From assembly GCA_963651445.1 (NCBI GenBank), contig CAVJPU010000002.1, forward strand, positions 97,489 to 161,488: DNA of 64,000 nucleotides, written 5' to 3'. The stretch comes from a bacterium. GTDB lineage: Bacteria > Bacillota_I > Bacilli_A > RFN20 > CAG-826. The position numbers and the translations under genes are program-made. This document shows, in pieces, positions 52,861 through 59,572 of this stretch. The notes under the pieces are model-generated. The model saw nothing but the letters and a program-made list of their open reading frames with translations. It did not search any database and had not been told where the DNA came from. Positions within the stretch are counted from its first letter, which is position 1. Every line of letters begins with the position of its first letter.

Positions 52861-53877
52861 TTATGAAATAACTTCTAACCATTTAGTGCGAATTTCTGCT
52901 TGGACCAATTTCTGCAATTCTGCTTTAAACTTACTAGGTTGTTGGGCATTATTGAGTACAATACCTTCACGTTCGGCTTCAACAAAAATATCTCGCATAG
53001 TAAGCCCAAGAACTTTGCCGAAGTCCTTTGAAGTCACTTCACCAATATGAGAAATAACATTTGATACTCGGTTCCATGTAACAAATTCGTTGAATTGCTC
53101 TAAAAGAGCTAAATCTTCTGGAGGAAGAGGTGTAGGAATTTTTGGAAGCTTACCTTTACTCTTTTCTTTAAATGCATCGGTTTTGTATTTAATAGCTAAA
53201 CGGCTTCCACCATGTAAGAACATCGGTTGATTTGGTTTAATAACTAAACCTTCTGCCGGGTTGCCTGCAGACGGAAGTTGTTTATGTTCAAAGTACATAT
53301 TTTGCCAAGTCAAAGTAGGCACTACAGATTCGAATTCCACAGGAAGTTTTAATAACTGTGTCAAAGGGCCTCGAGCAATTAATGGAGCGATTTTTAATCC
53401 ATAACGAGAACAAAATGTTTGTACATCACTATCAGGCCACCAGCCATGAGAAATCCCAGCGGATTCGCAGTCAAAGTAAACATCAAATACGTATAATGAT
53501 TTAATGTCGCCATAATTAACTTCTTTTTGGATTCCTGGGCCGGCATATTCACCAAAGATCTGAAGTGATTTAAACTCTGGTAGATTTTCGTTTAAATCTT
53601 TTTGGACCTTTTTTAATACAAAATCAAGGTCAGCCATTAAATCTTCATAACCAAAGAATTTTTCTGCTGGTTTAATTTCACCAGATCGTTTTGCCGGAGT
53701 AATAGCGTCTTTTGTAATGATAATAGAAAAATTAGTACCGTGGATTTTTTCTCGTGCAACAAACTCTACGGCATCACTGATTTGCGGACCAACGTTAATG
53801 ATATGCTCAAAACATTTTTCAATAAATTTGGCGTTAGTGTGGTTTTCTAGGCTAGGGTATTTTTTGAAGTTAGACAT
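52861..53877 (-). CDS. rnlB: RNA ligase 2 (RnlB)
   Basis: FKKYPSLENHTNAKFIEK, VAREKIHGTNFSII (KxHGxN adenylation motif), FGEYAGPGIQK, RVSNVISHIGEV..KDFGKVLGLTMRDI are colinear with remembered T4 Rnl2. Confidence 0.93.
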   Translation of the reverse strand: MSNFKKYPSLENHTNAKFIEKCFEHIINVGPQISDAVEFVAREKIHGTNFSIIITKDAITPAKRSGEIKPAEKFFGYEDLMADLDFVLKKVQKDLNENLPEFKSLQIFGEYAGPGIQKEVNYGDIKSLYVFDVYFDCESAGISHGWWPDSDVQTFCSRYGLKIAPLIARGPLTQLLKLPVEFESVVPTLTWQNMYFEHKQLPSAGNPAEGLVIKPNQPMFLHGGSRLAIKYKTDAFKEKSKGKLPKIPTPLPPEDLALLEQFNEFVTWNRVSNVISHIGEVTSKDFGKVLGLTMRDIFVEAEREGIVLNNAQQPSKFKAELQKLVQAEIRTKWLEVIS

Positions 53878-53935: not shown

Positions 53936-54133
53936 TTACTTAATACAAATAATATTTCTAATAATTAAAATATCACCGTACTTTTTAGGTTTAAAGCTTT
54001 CCGAAGTTTTAAGTTCATTGACTAGATTAATATATTGTGTTTCGTCGATAAGATCGATTTTAACATGTTGTTGACTAGTTGAAATATGACCAGAAGCTAA
54101 ATTTGTTGCTACAACTTCAATAATAATATTCAT
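53936..54133 (-). CDS. Hypothetical small protein
   Basis: 65 aa; AAGGAG 6 nt before the ATG, directly after the gene 60 stop. Confidence 0.55.
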   Translation of the reverse strand: MNIIIEVVATNLASGHISTSQQHVKIDLIDETQYINLVNELKTSESFKPKKYGDILIIRNIICIK

Positions 54134-54143
54134 ATTTGGCTCC

Positions 54144-54662
54144 TTAAGCTGTCATCCAATCTTTACGTAATTGTGGATCGTTACCCATCAACATTTCGAA
54201 TTTATCTTTCCACAATTCTGGTAATTTGACTACATCAAAATGCGGATCATTAATAACTCGCTCATACTCATTCATTTCCAGACTTCCTAGCCCTTTGATA
54301 TATCGGGCACTCCAGCCTTTGAGATCATCTTTAACTTCTTCATATTCTTCTGAAGTATAGAACCATTTTTGATCTTTACCTTTCTGACAAATCCAAACCG
54401 GTGTTTTAACGAATTTAACTCGACCTTGCTCGAATAATTCTGGCCAATTTGAAAAGAATGCTAATAAAGATGGATAGATAGAACCTGTGCCTAAATTCTC
54501 TAATTAAATGATAGTAGGCTTTCGCCTACCATCTACGTCGGCGTCAGTCATAATAGCGATATTACGATAATTTGTAGAGCCGGTGAATACACGACGAACG
54601 TGTGTTTGAGCTGAGTATGTGTCCATATCGATATCAGTTTTTGCGATTGGAGTTAATTTCAT
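54144..54662 (-). CDS. 60: DNA topoisomerase II large subunit, C-terminal part (gp60-like), interrupted by an internal stop-containing gap (putative translational bypass)
   Basis: ATG 54662 (GAGGT upstream): MKLTPIAKTDIDMDTYSAQTHVRRVFTGSTNYRNIAIMTDADVDG. Then comes a 12-14 codon gap with TAA (54504-54506). The same frame then resumes (T)GSIYPSLLAFFSNWPELFEQGRVKFVKTP...GSLEMNEYERVI...MGNDPQLRKDWMTA*. Both halves are colinear with remembered T4 gp60 (46 + 114 aa; here 45 + 114). Confidence 0.8.
54489..54527 (-). other. Putative coding gap / bypass element (take-off GGU 54530-54528; landing GGC 54491-54489, or GGU 54485-54483)
   Basis: The gap is AGG CGA AAG CCU ACU AUC AUU UAA UUA GAG AAU UUA (GGC). 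A 10-bp stem GAUGGUAGGC/GCCUACUAUC (54533-54510) with a GAAA tetraloop includes the take-off codon. Confidence 0.6.
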
Positions 54663-55476
54663 TGTATACCTCATAAAAGTCATCGTCAGGGCACCAGCCC
54701 GATTTAAATTTAATAAAACATTTTCCAAATAATTTGGATTTGTTACTAATGTTATTATACCTCATCCATTTTGAAATACCCGTTGCTTTAGGACGGTCTT
54801 CATCGTAGTTGTTACAATACCAATCATATAGGCTAGGTATTAATAGAACAATTTGTTTAGAATGTTCCGAATTGTTTTTATAATACCAAGGTCGGGCCCT
54901 TTTGCGTTCTGCTGCTATTGCAGTTGCAGTCTCAAAATTACCAACGCCTTTAAGTCCGAGAGACTTGATTATAGGGTCATTACAGTCTAAAAAATATGTT
55001 TTACCAGTAGAATCTTTAAAGCATGTATGTCGCTTTTTTTATTGATCTTGGTATTTTCTTTGCATAGTTTACACCTTTCCATAAAGATGTATCCACTGTA
55101 TCAACTTTTAGAAGCTTGCAGTGTCCAGTGCTAACATTTCTAAACACTGTTTTGCCTGCCATAAATTCACTAGACCAATCGGAAACTATACTTGAATGTA
55201 TATTTCTTGCAATATCATATGTTCTAGAGCTAATAAACCCCATATGTTTAGAGTTTTCATTCTACCCAATGCAAAGGCCATTTGGCGGTTTTTGTGAATT
55301 TTATACAACAATATATGAGCAATAAAATGCTCTCTATACGTTAGTTTAACTAGATTAGATTTGTCATCCGATCCTCCCATAGAACGCGGCAAAATATGAT
55401 GCCATTCTCCACGTTCTACTTCTAATCGGCCCTGAGACCGTTTAATTAAGTTATTGTATACTACAGCATAATTCAT
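54634..55476 (-). pseudogene. mobA-like HNH homing endonuclease gene, disrupted into three reading frames
   Basis: Frame a (55476-55186) carries the HNH core EWHHILPRSMGGSDDKSNLVKLTYREHFIAH. Frame b is 55243-55016. Frame c (~55030-54634) starts after an A7 run (55034-55040) and ends overlapping the gene 60 start. Its ATG overlaps the stop of the gene 39 middle part (ATGA). Confidence 0.7.
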
Positions 55477-55910
55477 AATAGATCTTTAACTTTCTTCCAT
55501 TGCCCGTCAACTAAAATTTCGTCATTTTCGTTAACAATAGTCCCATCTTCCAGTGTAAAGAATTTACCTTCGCTAGAGTATTCACCGGCAGATCCACCAA
55601 TTGATAAGCCCATGATAGCGCAAATATCAAAAATCTCTTTATTTTTGAGCATATCAGCAGCACTCATACCCCAGGTATTCATTACTTTACCACGCAGCGG
55701 ATAACCACCATGGAGTTCACGATCACGTGTAGAAATCAAATAACCGATCGCACTATTATGAGAAACAGTACCATCAGCAAAACAAAAGCTTTCATCGTCT
55801 TCAACCTGGATGTCTACCATATTGTGATGCTGGCCAGTAGGTTCGTATTCGGTAATATCTTCAAGAATAAATGTAGCTTTGTCGATAAGATTAAAATTAG
55901 TAATATTCAT
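55473..55910 (-). CDS. 39: Split-intein C-fragment (52 aa) fused to the C-terminal 93 aa of gp39 (Toprim region)
   Basis: MNITNF...HHNMVDIQVEDDESFCFADGTVSHN|SAIGYLISTRDRELHGGYPLRGKVMNTWGMSAADMLKNKEIFDICAIMGL. Intein blocks F/G end in HN followed by Ser. The extein continues the GyrB-type EGD-SA.G...R...GYPLRGK motif. Own SD AGAGG. Confidence 0.85.
   Translation of the reverse strand: MNITNFNLIDKATFILEDITEYEPTGQHHNMVDIQVEDDESFCFADGTVSHNSAIGYLISTRDRELHGGYPLRGKVMNTWGMSAADMLKNKEIFDICAIMGLSIGGSAGEYSSEGKFFTLEDGTIVNENDEILVDGQWKKVKDLL
55755..55910 (-). other. IntC (C-terminal split-intein half)
   Basis: Blocks F (VDIQVEDDESFCFADG) and G (TVSHN/S). Confidence 0.8.
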
Positions 55911-57207
55911 TTGATACCTCTTTACCTTGTTTCAAATCATTTATGAATTTATTGACATTATACACCAATACACAATTGCGGAACTTAAGTGCTTTATATT
56001 CTACGTTGTTACAGTATTCCAAATTTTCGGCCTTTGAATTAAAACTGCACAACTCGATATAATATTCTTCACCGTGATACCGTATTTTGATGTCATAAAA
56101 TTTTCTTAACTTACCAGGGTATTTTTTATTGGTGTCTATAACAACCACATCTTCGATGGCCTTTAAAGATGTATACATATCCAATTCTAATGCCGATCTA
56201 AAGAAATGCCCATCAACTGATGATGAATAACTGTAAGAATTTTTAGCTACAAAATTTTTATATCTAATTCGGACTTCTTGAGGTATATCAAAATATTCGA
56301 ATAAATTTAATATTTTGAACGTGTGTTTAAATGCCACTACCCTAGAAACTTTTTTGTCGATTGCCGGATTCTTTGATATGTATGCATCTTCGGCCCTTTG
56401 TAATACTAGACAAAAGCCAATAATTGACATATTTTTACCAATTAAATCTAAACAGTAGCCCTTAAATTTATTTTCGTCATTGACAAATGATGCGTAATTT
56501 GATTGAATCCATGTCTCATTTATTTCGCCATTAACAAACTTCGGTTTAGGTTTAACTCTAGATTTTCTTTTACAAATCTCTTCTTTAGAAAATCTAGAAG
56601 GGTCAAAAATTGACCGTTGTGACCGTTGCAATTCGTTCCATTTGCCAATACCGTTTTTGGAAATAAATTTATTTTTATTTCTATAATATGATAGCTTCCA
56701 ATTAGCAGTTATCTCATTTTGACGACAAGCAGAACGCCCACTATGCGACTGGAATGTAGAATACGATGACACATCCTTATGATTTTTTCTATAAAACGGC
56801 GAGTTATTCCTGTCTAGTATCAATTTTGATGCGTCATCTTCGTTAAGATTATATGCAAATTTTACATACTCTACCGAGTTCGGATTTAATTTTTTAAGGA
56901 AACATCCAGGCTTCCCGCATGCAAAATATTTGCCATATGATTTGTCTCTGGCATGGGTAATATTAGTGCAATCAATTAATATCCCATTAGGAGTTTCTAC
57001 AAGTTCCATAGAATCTTTAAATCCTATGTAGTCCTGTAAATTGCCGCATGCGCATTTTCTAGAATGTTTGGCCTCAAACAACTCAATTAATTCCGGATAC
57101 CGTTTATAAATCATAGTAAACAAGTATTTCTTTAACCGTGGACCAGAATAATTTTTATCAGGTATGGACACCGAAGTGTCCATAAACTTAACGTTTAAAT
57201 GTTTCAT
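55897..57207 (-). CDS. Free-standing endonuclease-like ORF between the intein halves (putative homing endonuclease; Cys-rich N-terminus, PD-(D/E)xK- or Vsr-like C-terminus)
   Basis: 436 aa. ATG overlaps the IntN stop (gtATGA) and the 3' end overlaps the IntC start by 14 nt. N-terminal Cys motifs HSRKCACGN and FACGKPGC. C-terminal GHFFRSALELDMYTSL...FYDIKI...YYIELC gives an E...D...E-x-(K/C) layout. No LAGLIDADG, GIY-YIG or HNH motif seen. Confidence 0.5.
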   Translation of the reverse strand: MKHLNVKFMDTSVSIPDKNYSGPRLKKYLFTMIYKRYPELIELFEAKHSRKCACGNLQDYIGFKDSMELVETPNGILIDCTNITHARDKSYGKYFACGKPGCFLKKLNPNSVEYVKFAYNLNEDDASKLILDRNNSPFYRKNHKDVSSYSTFQSHSGRSACRQNEITANWKLSYYRNKNKFISKNGIGKWNELQRSQRSIFDPSRFSKEEICKRKSRVKPKPKFVNGEINETWIQSNYASFVNDENKFKGYCLDLIGKNMSIIGFCLVLQRAEDAYISKNPAIDKKVSRVVAFKHTFKILNLFEYFDIPQEVRIRYKNFVAKNSYSYSSSVDGHFFRSALELDMYTSLKAIEDVVVIDTNKKYPGKLRKFYDIKIRYHGEEYYIELCSFNSKAENLEYCNNVEYKALKFRNCVLVYNVNKFINDLKQGKEVSNEYY

Positions 57208-58931
57208 ACAATAATTACATCATTTAATGTAATATCTTTAAACTGTTTGAGTTTTAAACCATCGGTATCCATTACAATCATTTCATGAGTAGGACTTGAG
57301 TTAATTCTATGGGTTGTGCCTATAACAGATTTCACAACCATTGATGACTCCGTCAACTCAACAATTTGTCTAGATCTGTTAATAGGACCGCCTAATTCAA
57401 CTAATCGATTTTTTATGAGCTTATGACGGCCCTTTACTAACGAATCTACTCGAATATATTCTACTGTATCCAATACCGTATCATACGCATACAATTTATG
57501 CTCATTTGAATAAATCTTACCGTTAATCTTAATCCCTGGTTTAAGACGAATAGTTTTAGACACTACTTGTTTAAAGTTGTGTTTTGCGGTCATGACTGTA
57601 TCACCAACTTGGATATCTTTGGCCCGGATATTACCATCTAATGTAAAGATTTCGGTATTCTCATCAAAACAGTCACCTTCCGTAAGGAACAAAGTAGTTT
57701 CTAATTCAGAATTACCATATTTGTTTGCTTTGATGTGTTTAGATACTTTAGCTTTTTGAGCAGCTTTGTTGGCTTTAGTTTCGGCGGCTTTTTCGGCAGC
57801 AAGTTTACGAGCAAGTACAGCTTCAATGATTGGCATCAAAATTGATTCAGTATTCATAAATTGTTTGACAATTTTCTTAAAATCTAAATCAATGTGAGAT
57901 TTAATTTCTCCCCATGGCGATGTAAGCCGCTCTTTGGTTTGTGAGTCAAATCGAAGATTGGACATATCTTTTACGAATAATAAAAGTGTCACACATTCTT
58001 TAATTCTGGCTTTGTTTACATCGATTTTAAACTTACGTTTAATTAAAGGAATCAATTCGTTTGAAAGCTCGTCCATAACGTAATCAATATGAGAACCACC
58101 AACTTTAGTATGGATTGCATTTACATATGATAAATGCCTAAACCCATCTTCAGATGTCCCAATTGCTAATTGGACTTTATCACTTTCGTAGCATAAAGCA
58201 TTTTCGTCGTATTGCTTGGCATATTTTTTAAAGTTACCAATGATTCTGCTGCCGTTAAATTTAAACTGAATTTCTGGATAAACCACGGCTAGTGTTTGCA
58301 TTTGGTCTTCAATAATACTAACAATAACATCATCAATTGAATTGCATTCAAAATGACTAAAGTCAGGAATAAATTCTACTTTAGTTCCATGTTTACCACC
58401 GGCTTTAGATTTCCAGTCAATAGTGTCAATATTATTTGTACATTTTACTACAAGAGTATTAGTGCCGTCGCATGTGGTACCGATAAATGAAGTAGAAAAA
58501 ATATTTGTTAATGATGACCCTACACCATTCATACCTGATGTTTTTCGCTCAGAATCTTCACCGAAATTGCCGCCGGCTTTTGTCTTTGTCCATGCAGCCA
58601 CCGGACCGGGAATACTATCGCCTTCCGGGGTTGTAATCATTGCTTGCGGAATACCACGACCGTTATCTTCAACCGTGACAAGATTTTTTTCCGTATCGAT
58701 AGTTACAGAAATTTTATTCGCGAATTCGAAATTGGTTCTAACGGCTTCGTCAATGGAATTATCTCGAATTTCTTCAATTAATTTTACAATTGCTGGCACA
58801 TATTTTAATTTAACGTATTTGCCAAATTGGAACCGTTCATATTCTTCAGATGATGTACTACCAACGTACATCCCAGGACGCTTAATAACATGTTCTTTAT
58901 CACTAAGCATTTTAATTTCATTTTTAATCAA
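57204..58931 (-). CDS. 39: DNA topoisomerase II large subunit gp39, N-terminal 420 aa (GHKL ATPase + transducer), fused to split-intein N-fragment (155 aa)
   Basis: TTG start after GGAG: MIKNEIKMLSDKEHVIKRPGMYVGS, DEAVRTNF, VEDNGRGIP, GMNGVGSS, ...TLFLTEGD|CFDENTEIFTLDGNIRAKDIQVGD... The Toprim EGD is followed by Cys1 and Hint block A. A block B-like SSPTHEMIV lies near the end, then a stop. Confidence 0.88.
   Translation of the reverse strand: MIKNEIKMLSDKEHVIKRPGMYVGSTSSEEYERFQFGKYVKLKYVPAIVKLIEEIRDNSIDEAVRTNFEFANKISVTIDTEKNLVTVEDNGRGIPQAMITTPEGDSIPGPVAAWTKTKAGGNFGEDSERKTSGMNGVGSSLTNIFSTSFIGTTCDGTNTLVVKCTNNIDTIDWKSKAGGKHGTKVEFIPDFSHFECNSIDDVIVSIIEDQMQTLAVVYPEIQFKFNGSRIIGNFKKYAKQYDENALCYESDKVQLAIGTSEDGFRHLSYVNAIHTKVGGSHIDYVMDELSNELIPLIKRKFKIDVNKARIKECVTLLLFVKDMSNLRFDSQTKERLTSPWGEIKSHIDLDFKKIVKQFMNTESILMPIIEAVLARKLAAEKAAETKANKAAQKAKVSKHIKANKYGNSELETTLFLTEGDCFDENTEIFTLDGNIRAKDIQVGDTVMTAKHNFKQVVSKTIRLKPGIKINGKIYSNEHKLYAYDTVLDTVEYIRVDSLVKGRHKLIKNRLVELGGPINRSRQIVELTESSMVVKSVIGTTHRINSSPTHEMIVMDTDGLKLKQFKDITLNDVIIV
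57207..57671 (-). other. IntN (N-terminal split-intein half)
   Basis: Begins at Cys codon 57671-57669, immediately after the ...LTEGD extein residue. Ends at stop 57206-57204. Confidence 0.8.
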
Positions 58932-58963
58932 TTTACGACTCCAATAGTAATTAGGATAATGAT

Positions 58964-58988
58964 ATTATATTCAATAATCTATAAAGCA
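58964..58988 (-). promoter_or_regulatory. MotA-dependent middle promoter (TTTGCTTTA-N12-TATAAT) for gene 39
   Basis: MotA box at 58982-58988 and -10 at 58964-58969 on the minus strand. motA and asiA are encoded in this window. Confidence 0.6.
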
Positions 58989-59011
58989 AATGGAACCGAA
59001 GTCCCATTTAA

Positions 59012-59572
59012 TTATTGCTCGAAGTATTTGCGTTCTTTTGCGCGTCTATTAGTAAGACCAGCAATAACTTTGCCGCCAGCTTTATTCCAAACATCAAATT
59101 GTGCAGCTGCACCTGCATAGTCCTTGGCGTTAAGTTTCTTTAACAGTGTAGAATTAGAGAATGCAGAAGAACCAATATTGTATGTCAACGACACTAATGC
59201 ATCGAATTGGGTTTGCTTCAATGGAACTTTAACAGAAGATTTAACAGTATTAACGAATTCTATTAAGTCGTATTGCATATATGATACAGCTTGTTCTTTT
59301 GTGCAAGTGTCGCCTTTTTTAACTCGGACGCCATTAGGGTATTTGATAGTCCCATAGCCTATTGTCCAAATACCTACACTATCTTGGTATGCCGCAAGTC
59401 TCAAGCCTTCGAATCCACCAATGAGATCAATACCGGCTGTAGAAACACTTGTTGCTGATAACTGTTCTGGGCTAAGATACGAAACAACCTTATTAAGATT
59501 ATCGACTTGTTCTTGGGTTAACTTGCCGCCAGCTAAAACACGTGCAGCATCAAAAAAGTCTTTGGTTTCCAT
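59012..59572 (-). CDS. e: Endolysin, T4 lysozyme (GH24) family with ~45-aa N-terminal extension
   Basis: IDLIGGFEGLRLAAYQDSVGIWTIGYGT (catalytic E...D...T pattern), FDALVSLTYNIG, AGLTNRRAKE. Confidence 0.88.
   Translation of the reverse strand: METKDFFDAARVLAGGKLTQEQVDNLNKVVSYLSPEQLSATSVSTAGIDLIGGFEGLRLAAYQDSVGIWTIGYGTIKYPNGVRVKKGDTCTKEQAVSYMQYDLIEFVNTVKSSVKVPLKQTQFDALVSLTYNIGSSAFSNSTLLKKLNAKDYAGAAAQFDVWNKAGGKVIAGLTNRRAKERKYFEQ

Follow-up and report, generated by a model that had tools for sequence, protein, structure and literature searches.

A split intein with a separate putative endonuclease gene between its halves appears to fracture a topoisomerase gene of a T4-like phage

We analysed a 64-kb stretch of contig CAVJPU010000002.1 (the window, in which all positions are given), which comes from a T4-like phage close to cultured Acinetobacter phages. 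The element studied here lies in gene 39, encoding the large subunit (gp39) of the phage type II topoisomerase. Three open reading frames (ORFs) on the minus strand tile positions 58931..55473, such that a conserved enzyme gene is present in two pieces on one strand, each sharing its reading frame with one half of a putative intein (IntN and IntC, the N- and C-terminal halves). The features are as follows.

58931..57204, minus strand: ORF1, TTG start, 575 residues, consisting of gp39 residues 1-420 and 155 residues after EGD
57672..58931, minus strand: N-extein, topoisomerase II large subunit (gp39) residues 1-420, ATPase and transducer domains
57207..57671, minus strand: IntN, 155 codons continuing the frame of the N-extein; Cys1 codon TGT at 57671-57669, stop codon TGA at 57206-57204
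57207..55897, minus strand: ORF2, free-standing, 436 residues in another frame, putative homing endonuclease
55910..55473, minus strand: ORF3, 145 residues, consisting of a 52-residue IntC and the remainder of gp39
55755..55910, minus strand: IntC, 52 codons; block F MVDIQVEDDESFCFADG, block G TVSHN, terminal Asn codon AAT at 55757-55755
55473..55754, minus strand: C-extein, gp39 residues 421-513; Ser+1 codon AGT at 55754-55752, SAIGYLISTRDRELHGGYPLRGK..., continuation of the Toprim domain

The N-extein, in which Pfam HATPase_c and DNA_gyraseB were matched, ends with ...TTLFLTEGD, the start of the Toprim EGDSA motif, and the junction in ORF1 reads ...ELETTLFLTEGD/CFDENTEIF.... The ATG of ORF2 overlaps the stop codon of ORF1 (gtATGA, 4 nucleotides) and its last 14 nucleotides overlap the start of ORF3. 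The latter has a Shine-Dalgarno sequence (GAGG, 55920-55917) located 6 nucleotides upstream of its ATG (55910-55908), and its first 52 residues end with ...FCFADGTVSHN, followed by SAIGYLISTRDRELHGGYPLRG. An earlier note on this DNA had described ORF1 as running through EGD into 155 intein-like residues up to a stop at 57204, the ORF starting at 55910 as having its own Shine-Dalgarno sequence and 52 intein residues ahead of those expected after EGD, and the 436-codon ORF between them as lying in a different frame and overlapping both neighbours. Coordinates and translations bore out this layout. The interval that it had given, 55755-57671, is also exact: it reaches from the last base of the Asn codon to the first base of the Cys1 codon and, because the Cys1, Asn and Ser+1 codons sit there, delimits the insert to the base.

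The profile of the topoisomerase II large subunit, PHROG 543, is continuous at position 445. ORF1 residues 1-420 matched profile positions 23-445 (E-value 8e-174) and ORF3 residues 52-112 matched positions 445-502. Because the profile resumes where ORF1 left off, the break in gp39 is a point insertion. Comparison with the uninterrupted gp39 of Acinetobacter phage AB-Navy-v2 gave the same picture. In tblastn searches its residues 1-417 matched window positions 58928..57672 and its residues 417-510 matched 55757..55476 with 83% identity, the two pieces abutting the insert. Similarly, megablast matches to related Acinetobacter T4-like phages (about 76% nucleotide identity) extended only up to both borders of the insert. 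Removal of the insert restores the host sequence TTLFLTEGD-SAIGYL..., which is read unbroken in the intein-less relative. The sequence of AB-Navy-v2 gp39, TTLFLTEGDSAIGYLISTRDRELHGGYPLRG, equals the predicted spliced product across the junction, for which the predicted splice-junction peptide is TTLFLTEGDSAIGYLISTR. The length of 513 residues foreseen for this product was right (420 + 93). The insert shows no compositional anomaly, with a G+C content of 0.32-0.34 compared to 0.35 in the flanks. A motif scan of positions 55400-59100 did not find the T4 late promoter (TATAAATA), while strings resembling MotA boxes and -10 elements were present.

In the intein-less gp39 region of AB-Navy-v2, the empty site reads ...GAAGGTGATTCTGCGATTGG... 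/ ...TTAACAGAAGGTGATTCTGCGATTGGTTAT.... Compared to this site, the codons at the junction in the window differ synonymously: GAC instead of GAT for Asp-1 (57672-57674), AGT instead of TCT for Ser+1 (55752-55754) and ATC instead of ATT, the change at Ser+1 being a switch of serine codon family. These differences could protect the occupied allele from the endonuclease; alternatively, they may reflect the nucleotide divergence of about 24% between the two phages.

The residues flanking the junction are those of a class-1 intein. Cys1, which directly follows ...TEGD, was invariant in eight aligned IntN sequences and in three further ones read by eye (L013, L014 and P0159). IntC ends with MVDIQVEDDESFCFADGTVSHN/S in the window, and the pattern xxDIxV ... 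SHN/S was found in all eight IntC sequences. Cys1, His58, the block-F Asp, the terminal His-Asn and Ser+1 were conserved in every lineage read.

A single-sequence search of the Protein Data Bank (PDB) with the fused intein gave nothing significant, and a word-indexed homologue search with the same query retrieved only ORFs bearing IntC. Detection required profiles and structure models. When a profile built from four fused IntN and IntC sequences was compared to the PDB, 10 of the 11 matches were inteins, including the 36-residue IntC chains of Npu DnaE. The profile also matched the IMPDH-1 split intein (E-value 5e-8), with positions 1-86 covering the entire IMPDH-1 IntN and positions 168-207 the entire IMPDH-1 IntC; the IMPDH-1 query sequence was confirmed against the supplement of PMC7090010. 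An AlphaFold model of the fused halves had a mean predicted local distance difference test score (pLDDT) of 76.5 and a predicted template modelling (TM) score (pTM) of 0.68, the sole low-confidence places being residues 90-98 and the artificial fusion point. In Foldseek searches of the PDB, all 50 best matches of this model were HINT domains, inteins or their relatives, 30 of them at an E-value of 1e-3 or below (best E-value 2.7e-5; target-normalised TM-scores up to 0.73). Among them were the gp41-1 split intein (TM-score 0.69) and, at rank 10, the Aes123 PolB1 split intein. The net charges of the halves are +4 for IntN and -10 for IntC. Opposite charges are usual in the halves of split inteins. 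Taken together, profile and model support the view that IntN and IntC form a class-1 split intein of HINT fold, for which splicing is predicted.

The earlier note had placed block B at SSPTHEMIV, which is probably a misassignment. The His of this SSPTH motif (IntN residues ~125-129) is missing in L009 and L001, while that of S55-N-E-H58 is invariant in the eight aligned IntN sequences as well as in L013, L014 and P0159. In addition, S55-N-E-H58 was aligned to TKNH of IMPDH-1. On the basis of these alignments it is the more likely block B, although most lineages have Ser or Gly in place of the Thr of TxxH. Compared to IMPDH-1, IntN residues ~90-155 (57207-57404) and IntC residues 1-13 (55872-55910) are extra. 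This extra segment of about 65 + 13 residues at the split point is beta-rich in the model and has no counterpart in the IMPDH-1, gp41-1 and Npu DnaE split inteins. It holds the second block-B-like motif, SSPTHEMIVMDTDGLKLKQFKDITLNDVIIV, which is kept in T4-like lineages. An origin of the IntN tail by internal duplication is not supported, as HHalign of residues 89-155 against 1-88 gave a probability of only 3.6%. The tail could be a remnant of a history of nuclease exchange or an added docking element.

ORF2, located between the two halves, had no matches in Pfam or PHROGs, and a single-sequence search of the PDB found nothing significant. Using a profile of six sequences, an exhaustive HMMER search recovered a family of 194 clusters at 50% identity. 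When 110 members of this family were compared to Pfam, the only matches were two to DUF559, one to REase_MTES_1575 and one to HNH. Two parts can be distinguished in ORF2.

56728..57075, minus strand: N-terminal module of ORF2, residues ~45-160, defined by invariant columns in the 110-sequence alignment
55918..56220, minus strand: C-terminal nuclease-type domain of ORF2, residues ~330-430, with alpha-beta-beta-beta-alpha-beta topology in the model

The protein starts with a conserved Met-Lys. In its N-terminal module, C52, C54, C97 and C102 are invariant throughout the family, together with the motif LNPNS...A..LI..RNKSPFY..N..Y..Q. The four cysteines probably form a zinc finger, judging from their conservation, and we infer that the module serves in DNA targeting. 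The model of ORF2 has a pLDDT of about 90 over residues 1-130. The module itself had no match in Pfam or PHROGs, and fold searches with the whole ORF2 model were uninformative on it because the nuclease domain dominates the matches.

Behind this one N-terminal module, three types of C-terminal domain are found in the family. The type present in the window carries the motifs S..E / YDF / IE.(A/C)G / K...K, with S338, E341, D372 and E385 invariant and K405 nearly so. The second type is Vsr-like (IIEYHGSxWH ... D.D), and its profile retrieves Vsr itself in the PDB. The third, HNH, was seen in the jumbo phage L001. HHalign related the window type to the Vsr-like type of the same family (92% probability, E-value 5e-7), with D372 and E385 aligned. 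In searches of PDB sequences, the best match of the ORF2 C-terminal profile was the nuclease domain of Bax1 (E-value 0.07), which matched motif for motif. PD-(D/E)xK nucleases also dominated the Foldseek results, with a probability of 0.93 for Bax1; other matches were N.BspD6I, McrC, RecU, Hjc, VRR-NUC and restriction enzymes. Of the Vsr set (Vsr D51, the Glu at the F62 position, H69 of 'WH' and a distal Asp), the window type has D372 and E385 but no His motif; the corresponding region reads IELCSFNSK, versus IIEYHGSxWH in the Vsr-like type. Since the Vsr His is missing, ORF2 is a relative rather than a member of the Vsr-like class. As sequence, profile and fold evidence agree, the C-terminal part is likely a nuclease domain, and a candidate member of the PD-(D/E)xK superfamily. 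The earlier description of the middle ORF as endonuclease-like hence gained a nuclease-type C-terminal domain, which is neither GIY-YIG nor Vsr-like as in the original fractured genes.

In all ten contexts of the ORF2 family that were examined (P0001, P0002, P0003, P0005, P0006, P0010, P0023, P0038, P0075 and L001_M), with all three types included, the gene lies between the halves of a topoisomerase intein. Because all ten lie in this site, the family seems to be site-dedicated, a constant targeting module being combined with exchanged catalytic domains. A broader claim is that ORF2 stands for a large homing-endonuclease family, so far undescribed, with a single target, the EGD/SA Toprim codons of phage type II topoisomerases. 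In this family the recognition module would have been kept and the catalytic domain exchanged at least twice (His-less PD-(D/E)xK, Vsr-like and HNH), always together with one homologous split intein, from T4-like to jumbo phages. We give this claim an even chance. If true, it would be a case of natural nuclease-domain swapping on a fixed DNA-targeting scaffold.

In L009 (3664-4971) and L010 (374-1680), the Vsr-type endonuclease gene between the intein halves is broken: it begins as a 314-residue ORF, and beyond the stop of this ORF the Vsr-like catalytic part (SKESIKFF...FYDFYIPSLKIIIEYNGSLFHYN...VWDTD) is read in a different frame. A real frameshift is probable, since two independent assemblies, one from ENA and one from JGI, show the identical break; the endonuclease may be decaying, or the shift may be programmed.

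Two other T4-like contigs from metagenomes, L002 and L003, contain three-ORF loci homologous to that of the window, in which the ORFs have 573/572, 439 and 238 residues. Between the window and these two contigs, synonymous sites are saturated (synonymous divergence, pS, 0.57-0.86). In IntN, nonsynonymous divergence (pN) was 0.20-0.32 versus a pS of 0.66-0.70. In IntC, pN was 0.07-0.14, with 80-90% amino acid identity between lineages. The pN of ORF2 was 0.22-0.45 depending on the region, far below pS, and every frame was open. These substitution patterns show purifying selection on each of the three ORFs. The 4-nucleotide (ATGA) and 14-nucleotide overlaps are the same in the window, L002 and L003, whereas distant loci have spacers of 3-47 nucleotides.

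Furthermore, ten or more other lineages of metagenomic phages carry the same split intein at the same junction. The junction, EG(D, Q, Y, L or N)/C ... SHN/SA, was seen in L008, L009/L010, L011, L012, L013, L014, P0159, P0234 and P0276, and also in L001 (LR756500.1), a 462-kb uncultured jumbo phage. IntN was present in 5 of the best 120 of 1,255 gp39 clusters, and none of these five came from a named phage. The insert was found in no annotated phage of the INPHARED set. The closest extein relatives of the window (80% amino acid identity) are without the element, and its presence and absence therefore follow the pattern of a mobile element.

Given these data, we consider it highly probable that a mobile element, consisting of a class-1 intein and a homing-endonuclease gene, invaded the EGD/SA Toprim codons, and that trans-splicing and homing follow from this. 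Where contiguous inteins hold an endonuclease domain, the endonuclease gene would here be a separate ORF, and because of this the intein and the host gene would each be split in two. ORF1 and ORF3 would be translated separately, ORF3 from its own Shine-Dalgarno sequence, and ORF2 would probably start by stop-start coupling at ATGA. The oppositely charged halves may then associate and fold into a HINT domain, in which Cys1, His58, the block-F Asp, the terminal His-Asn and Ser+1 would perform protein trans-splicing. The predicted product is a gp39 of 513 residues with the Toprim loop ...LTEGDSAIGYL... restored; related split gp39 forms of T4 type have 510-518 residues. In GyrB-type enzymes, the Glu of the Toprim EGDSA loop is catalytic. 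As the break sits in the loop containing this Glu, ligation of gp39 is probably needed for activity. The zinc-finger/LNPNS module of ORF2 would recognise the uninterrupted topoisomerase allele and the PD-(D/E)xK-type domain would cut this empty allele, and repair would copy the element in during co-infection. Spliced gp39 would then assemble with the gene-60-like product encoded downstream, itself predicted to be made by translational bypass.

Several observations weigh against this interpretation. All three Pfam intein models scored below their gathering cut-offs, though at the right residues: Hint_2 reached 24.9 bits (cut-off 28.4) at ORF1 residues 421-458, Hom_end_hint 18.3 bits (32.1) and Intein_splicing 16.4 bits (35.8). 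As the domain is split, these models see only one half at a time. Of the profile match proposed as a check in the earlier note, the position was hence found and the significance was not. The model of the fused intein was made from a shallow alignment of five rows, and two of the five models had a pLDDT below 50. In HMMER alignments with the TFIIB and RadA inteins, their block B falls on the second TxxH-like motif (SSPTH), which makes the placement of block B tentative. The fragments of 155 and 52 residues are longer than usual, as natural split-intein fragments typically have about 100 and 40 residues (PMC11923092). As for ORF2, each nuclease match is weak by itself (Foldseek E-values of 0.005 or more; hmmsearch E-value 0.07), and its C-terminal domain lacks both a catalytic His of the Vsr-like kind and an obvious ExK Lys at the canonical place.

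The intein halves might instead dock the gp39 fragments non-covalently without ligation, similar to the fragmented NrdA of phage Aeh1, in which a mobile element left interaction domains. Working split genes without ligation do exist in T4-like phages (PMC3045599). A non-covalent split is already present, and tolerated, at the mobA site further downstream in this gene, and complementary charges would serve plain association too. However, Cys1, the block-B His, the block-F Asp, His-Asn and Ser+1 are invariant despite saturated synonymous sites, and mere docking would not require these residues. In addition, an appendage of 207 residues inside the Toprim catalytic loop (EGD/SA) is unlikely to be tolerated, and we regard docking without ligation as improbable. 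The element could also be dead and gene 39 a non-functional remnant, the phage managing without a topoisomerase of its own. T4 topoisomerase mutants are viable, with a 'DNA-delay' phenotype. The adjoining mobA-like gene is clearly a pseudogene, and the frameshifted Vsr-type endonuclease of L009/L010 indicates that decay does occur in such elements. Nevertheless, the three ORFs are intact both in the window and in homologues of 50-70% identity, their start and stop overlaps are conserved, and pN is far below pS in the exteins, the intein halves and ORF2; this makes a dead element very improbable.

The last explanation considered is an error of assembly or sequencing, the true sequence being either one contiguous intein whose endonuclease domain is in frame or an ORF-carrying group I intron. 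Single-base errors can split ORFs in metagenome assemblies, and nothing specific points to them here. ORF2 is out of frame in more than ten independent assemblies from different samples; close relatives share the overlaps and distant ones have spacers and start codons of their own, and ORF2 keeps its Met-Lys start. An Rfam scan of positions 54000-59200 at E-values up to 1 returned no group I intron, only two chance matches to eukaryotic snoRNA/miRNA families. This result and the coding signal contradict a group I intron carrying ORF2, and an artefact of either kind is extremely improbable. A trans-splicing intein with a homing-endonuclease gene thus remains the explanation that we favour.

Downstream of ORF3, two more breaks are found in the same ancestral gene.

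54637..55476, minus strand: mobA-like HNH homing-endonuclease pseudogene (PHROG 655, E-value 1e-36)
54144..54662, minus strand: gene-60-like remainder of the topoisomerase large subunit, with the IAIMTDADVDG Toprim DxD motif and the C-terminal part

The mobA-like pseudogene is 57% identical to the intact 282-residue endonuclease of AB-Navy-v2. It contains four in-frame stops, and its middle third can be read only in another frame. Lying between gp39 and the gene-60-like part, it is a second, independent break, which parallels the mobA pseudogene of T4. The C-extein terminates in an extension typical of mobA-split topoisomerases, followed by the stop codon. This tail, EGKFFTLEDGTIVNENDEILVDGQWKKVKDLL, comprises the last ~32 residues of ORF3 (55476-55570, minus strand); it has no counterpart in the unsplit topoisomerases (L002_C and L003_C) and is conserved in P0008. 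It corresponds to the 'CTE' of a preprint (bioRxiv 10.1101/2022.08.31.505936), for which a role in reassembly of the split subunits is proposed there. In L002 and L003 the intein is present and the C-terminal part is unbroken, while P0008 has the intein together with a 145-residue C-terminal piece of T4 type. Because of these combinations, the intein and the downstream split assort independently.

The gene-60-like part, in which PHROG 19082 was matched over its full length (1-45/45), contains a bypass cassette (54489-54530, minus strand). After 45 codons, the take-off codon GGT (54530-54528) and the landing codon GGC (54491-54489), a matched pair for a single tRNA, are separated by a gap of 39 nucleotides, compared to 50 in T4. 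The stop after take-off is replaced by the rare codon AGG, and a hairpin (AGGC-GAAA-GCCU, with a GAAA tetraloop) contains the take-off site. An in-frame TAA and a Shine-Dalgarno-like GAG(A) element are also present. Translation after landing would resume with TGSIYPSLLAFF / TGSIYPSLLAFFSNWPELFEQGR, restoring the conserved DG-xGSIYP. Based on these sequence elements, the cassette is a predicted bypass of the T4 gene-60 type. In the preprint, a clade-5 type of cassette with GGU/GGC and a 'hungry' AGG is described for the Acinetobacter phages Stupor and Abraxas and the metagenomic sequence MGS1, and the cassette of the window is exactly of this type.

Fractured genes were described from metagenomes by Dassa et al. 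2009 (PMC2677866), with the split inteins gp41-1, gp41-8, NrdJ-1, NrdA-2 and IMPDH-1 and free-standing endonuclease genes. The window shares with these the order of host N-terminal part with IntN, endonuclease ORF, and IntC with host C-terminal part on one strand, as well as a phage enzyme of DNA metabolism as host and a class-1 intein with Cys1 and Ser+1. The eight hosts in that study were gp41, IMPDH, DnaE, NrdA, NrdJ, DNA ligase, terminase and one unknown protein, whereas the host in the window is the large subunit of topoisomerase II. The intein fragments in the window are longer (155 and 52 residues). The endonucleases described were GIY-YIG or Vsr-like, located after spacers of 27-51 nucleotides, while that of the window is neither GIY-YIG nor canonical Vsr-like. 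Since the ORFs overlap, the window has no such spacer, a feature that is descriptive and not essential.

The earlier note was not aware of this arrangement in a T4-family topoisomerase gene, and in this respect it was not quite right. The preprint bioRxiv 10.1101/2022.08.31.505936 mentions a Topo2L ORF1 split by HINT/VSR/HINTC in the metagenomic sequence MGS5, and its Table S2 lists more cases, including at least one ORF1b, ...GIISHN/SAAKS..., with the same junction and no intervening ORF. Host gene and site have thus already been noted, briefly and without analysis, in one sentence and some table notes. These cases have in common with the window the host gene and a mobA/bypass cassette further downstream. 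They differ in being Campylobacter-clade-like or otherwise metagenomic, with a VSR endonuclease or no intervening ORF, whereas the window represents an Acinetobacter-phage-like T4 relative with a His-less PD-(D/E)xK-type endonuclease. The preprint text examined contains no description of a site-dedicated endonuclease family or of three nuclease types. In full-text literature searches, no direct mention of a split intein in topoisomerase or gene 39 came up; the prior mention sits in the literature on gene-60 bypass.

Two other inteins are comparable. One, Aes123 PolB1 from T4-like Aeromonas phages (PMC11923092; PDB 9hth), is likewise a naturally split intein with a HINT fold and lies in an essential replication gene, here that of a cultured phage. 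In contrast to the window, its host is a DNA polymerase, it is cysteine-less (Ser1) and its fragments have 120 and 39 residues. The Ssp GyrB intein of Synechocystis sp. PCC 6803 also interrupts the Toprim EGDSAGG motif of a GyrB-type protein and is followed by Ser+1. It differs in being bacterial and contiguous, with an endonuclease domain of its own, and its junction AGG/SAK is located four residues downstream of EGD/SA. The ORF2 C-terminal domain shares the S..E / (Y)DF / IE..G core with the Vsr-like, I-Bth0305I-type endonucleases (PMC2677866, PMC3239194) and with archaeal Bax1. ORF2 also has the bipartite architecture of DNA-binding and catalytic parts of the I-Bth0305I-type enzymes, and differs from them in lacking the 'WH' motif.

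Further genes that look intein-bearing were observed in contigs with homologous elements. In L001 (6407-7900), the adjoining gene for the gp52/GyrA-like topoisomerase subunit looks fractured too. A 179-residue ORF contains the host part up to ...AEAFYHHGD and then the IntN-like sequence CGDYDTPILLEDGSYIKIGEW, and is followed by a 300-residue ORF with a Vsr-like motif (FFYDLTIK..LIIEFNGCRWHPD). Because of these IntN-like and Vsr-like ORFs, both topoisomerase subunit genes of L001 appear to bear split inteins. In L002 (8671-10722), the RNA ligase 2 (Rnl2) gene encodes a product of 683 residues with precomputed matches to Intein_splicing and LAGLIDADG_2, which would be a contiguous intein as far as these matches indicate. 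The Rnl2 of the window's relatives has 336-338 residues (52861..53877 in the window).

The arrangement is of an already known kind and will not surprise specialists; what is added here is the breadth of the element, the modular and site-dedicated endonuclease family and the fragment lengths. The Cys1/Ser+1 pair of this locus, a relative of IMPDH-1 with unusual fragment lengths, would be new to the orthogonal split-intein toolbox, and the ORF2 family provides candidate endonucleases whose recognition domain is modular. The finding adds the type II topoisomerase of a T4-type phage to the short list of naturally fractured genes, and the element is widespread at this one site across very different phages. 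We propose that one ancestral gene is served by three fixes, namely trans-splicing, non-covalent assembly across a decayed mobA insertion and a bypass of 39 nucleotides. The locus is thus a compact natural system for selfish elements piling up in an essential gene.

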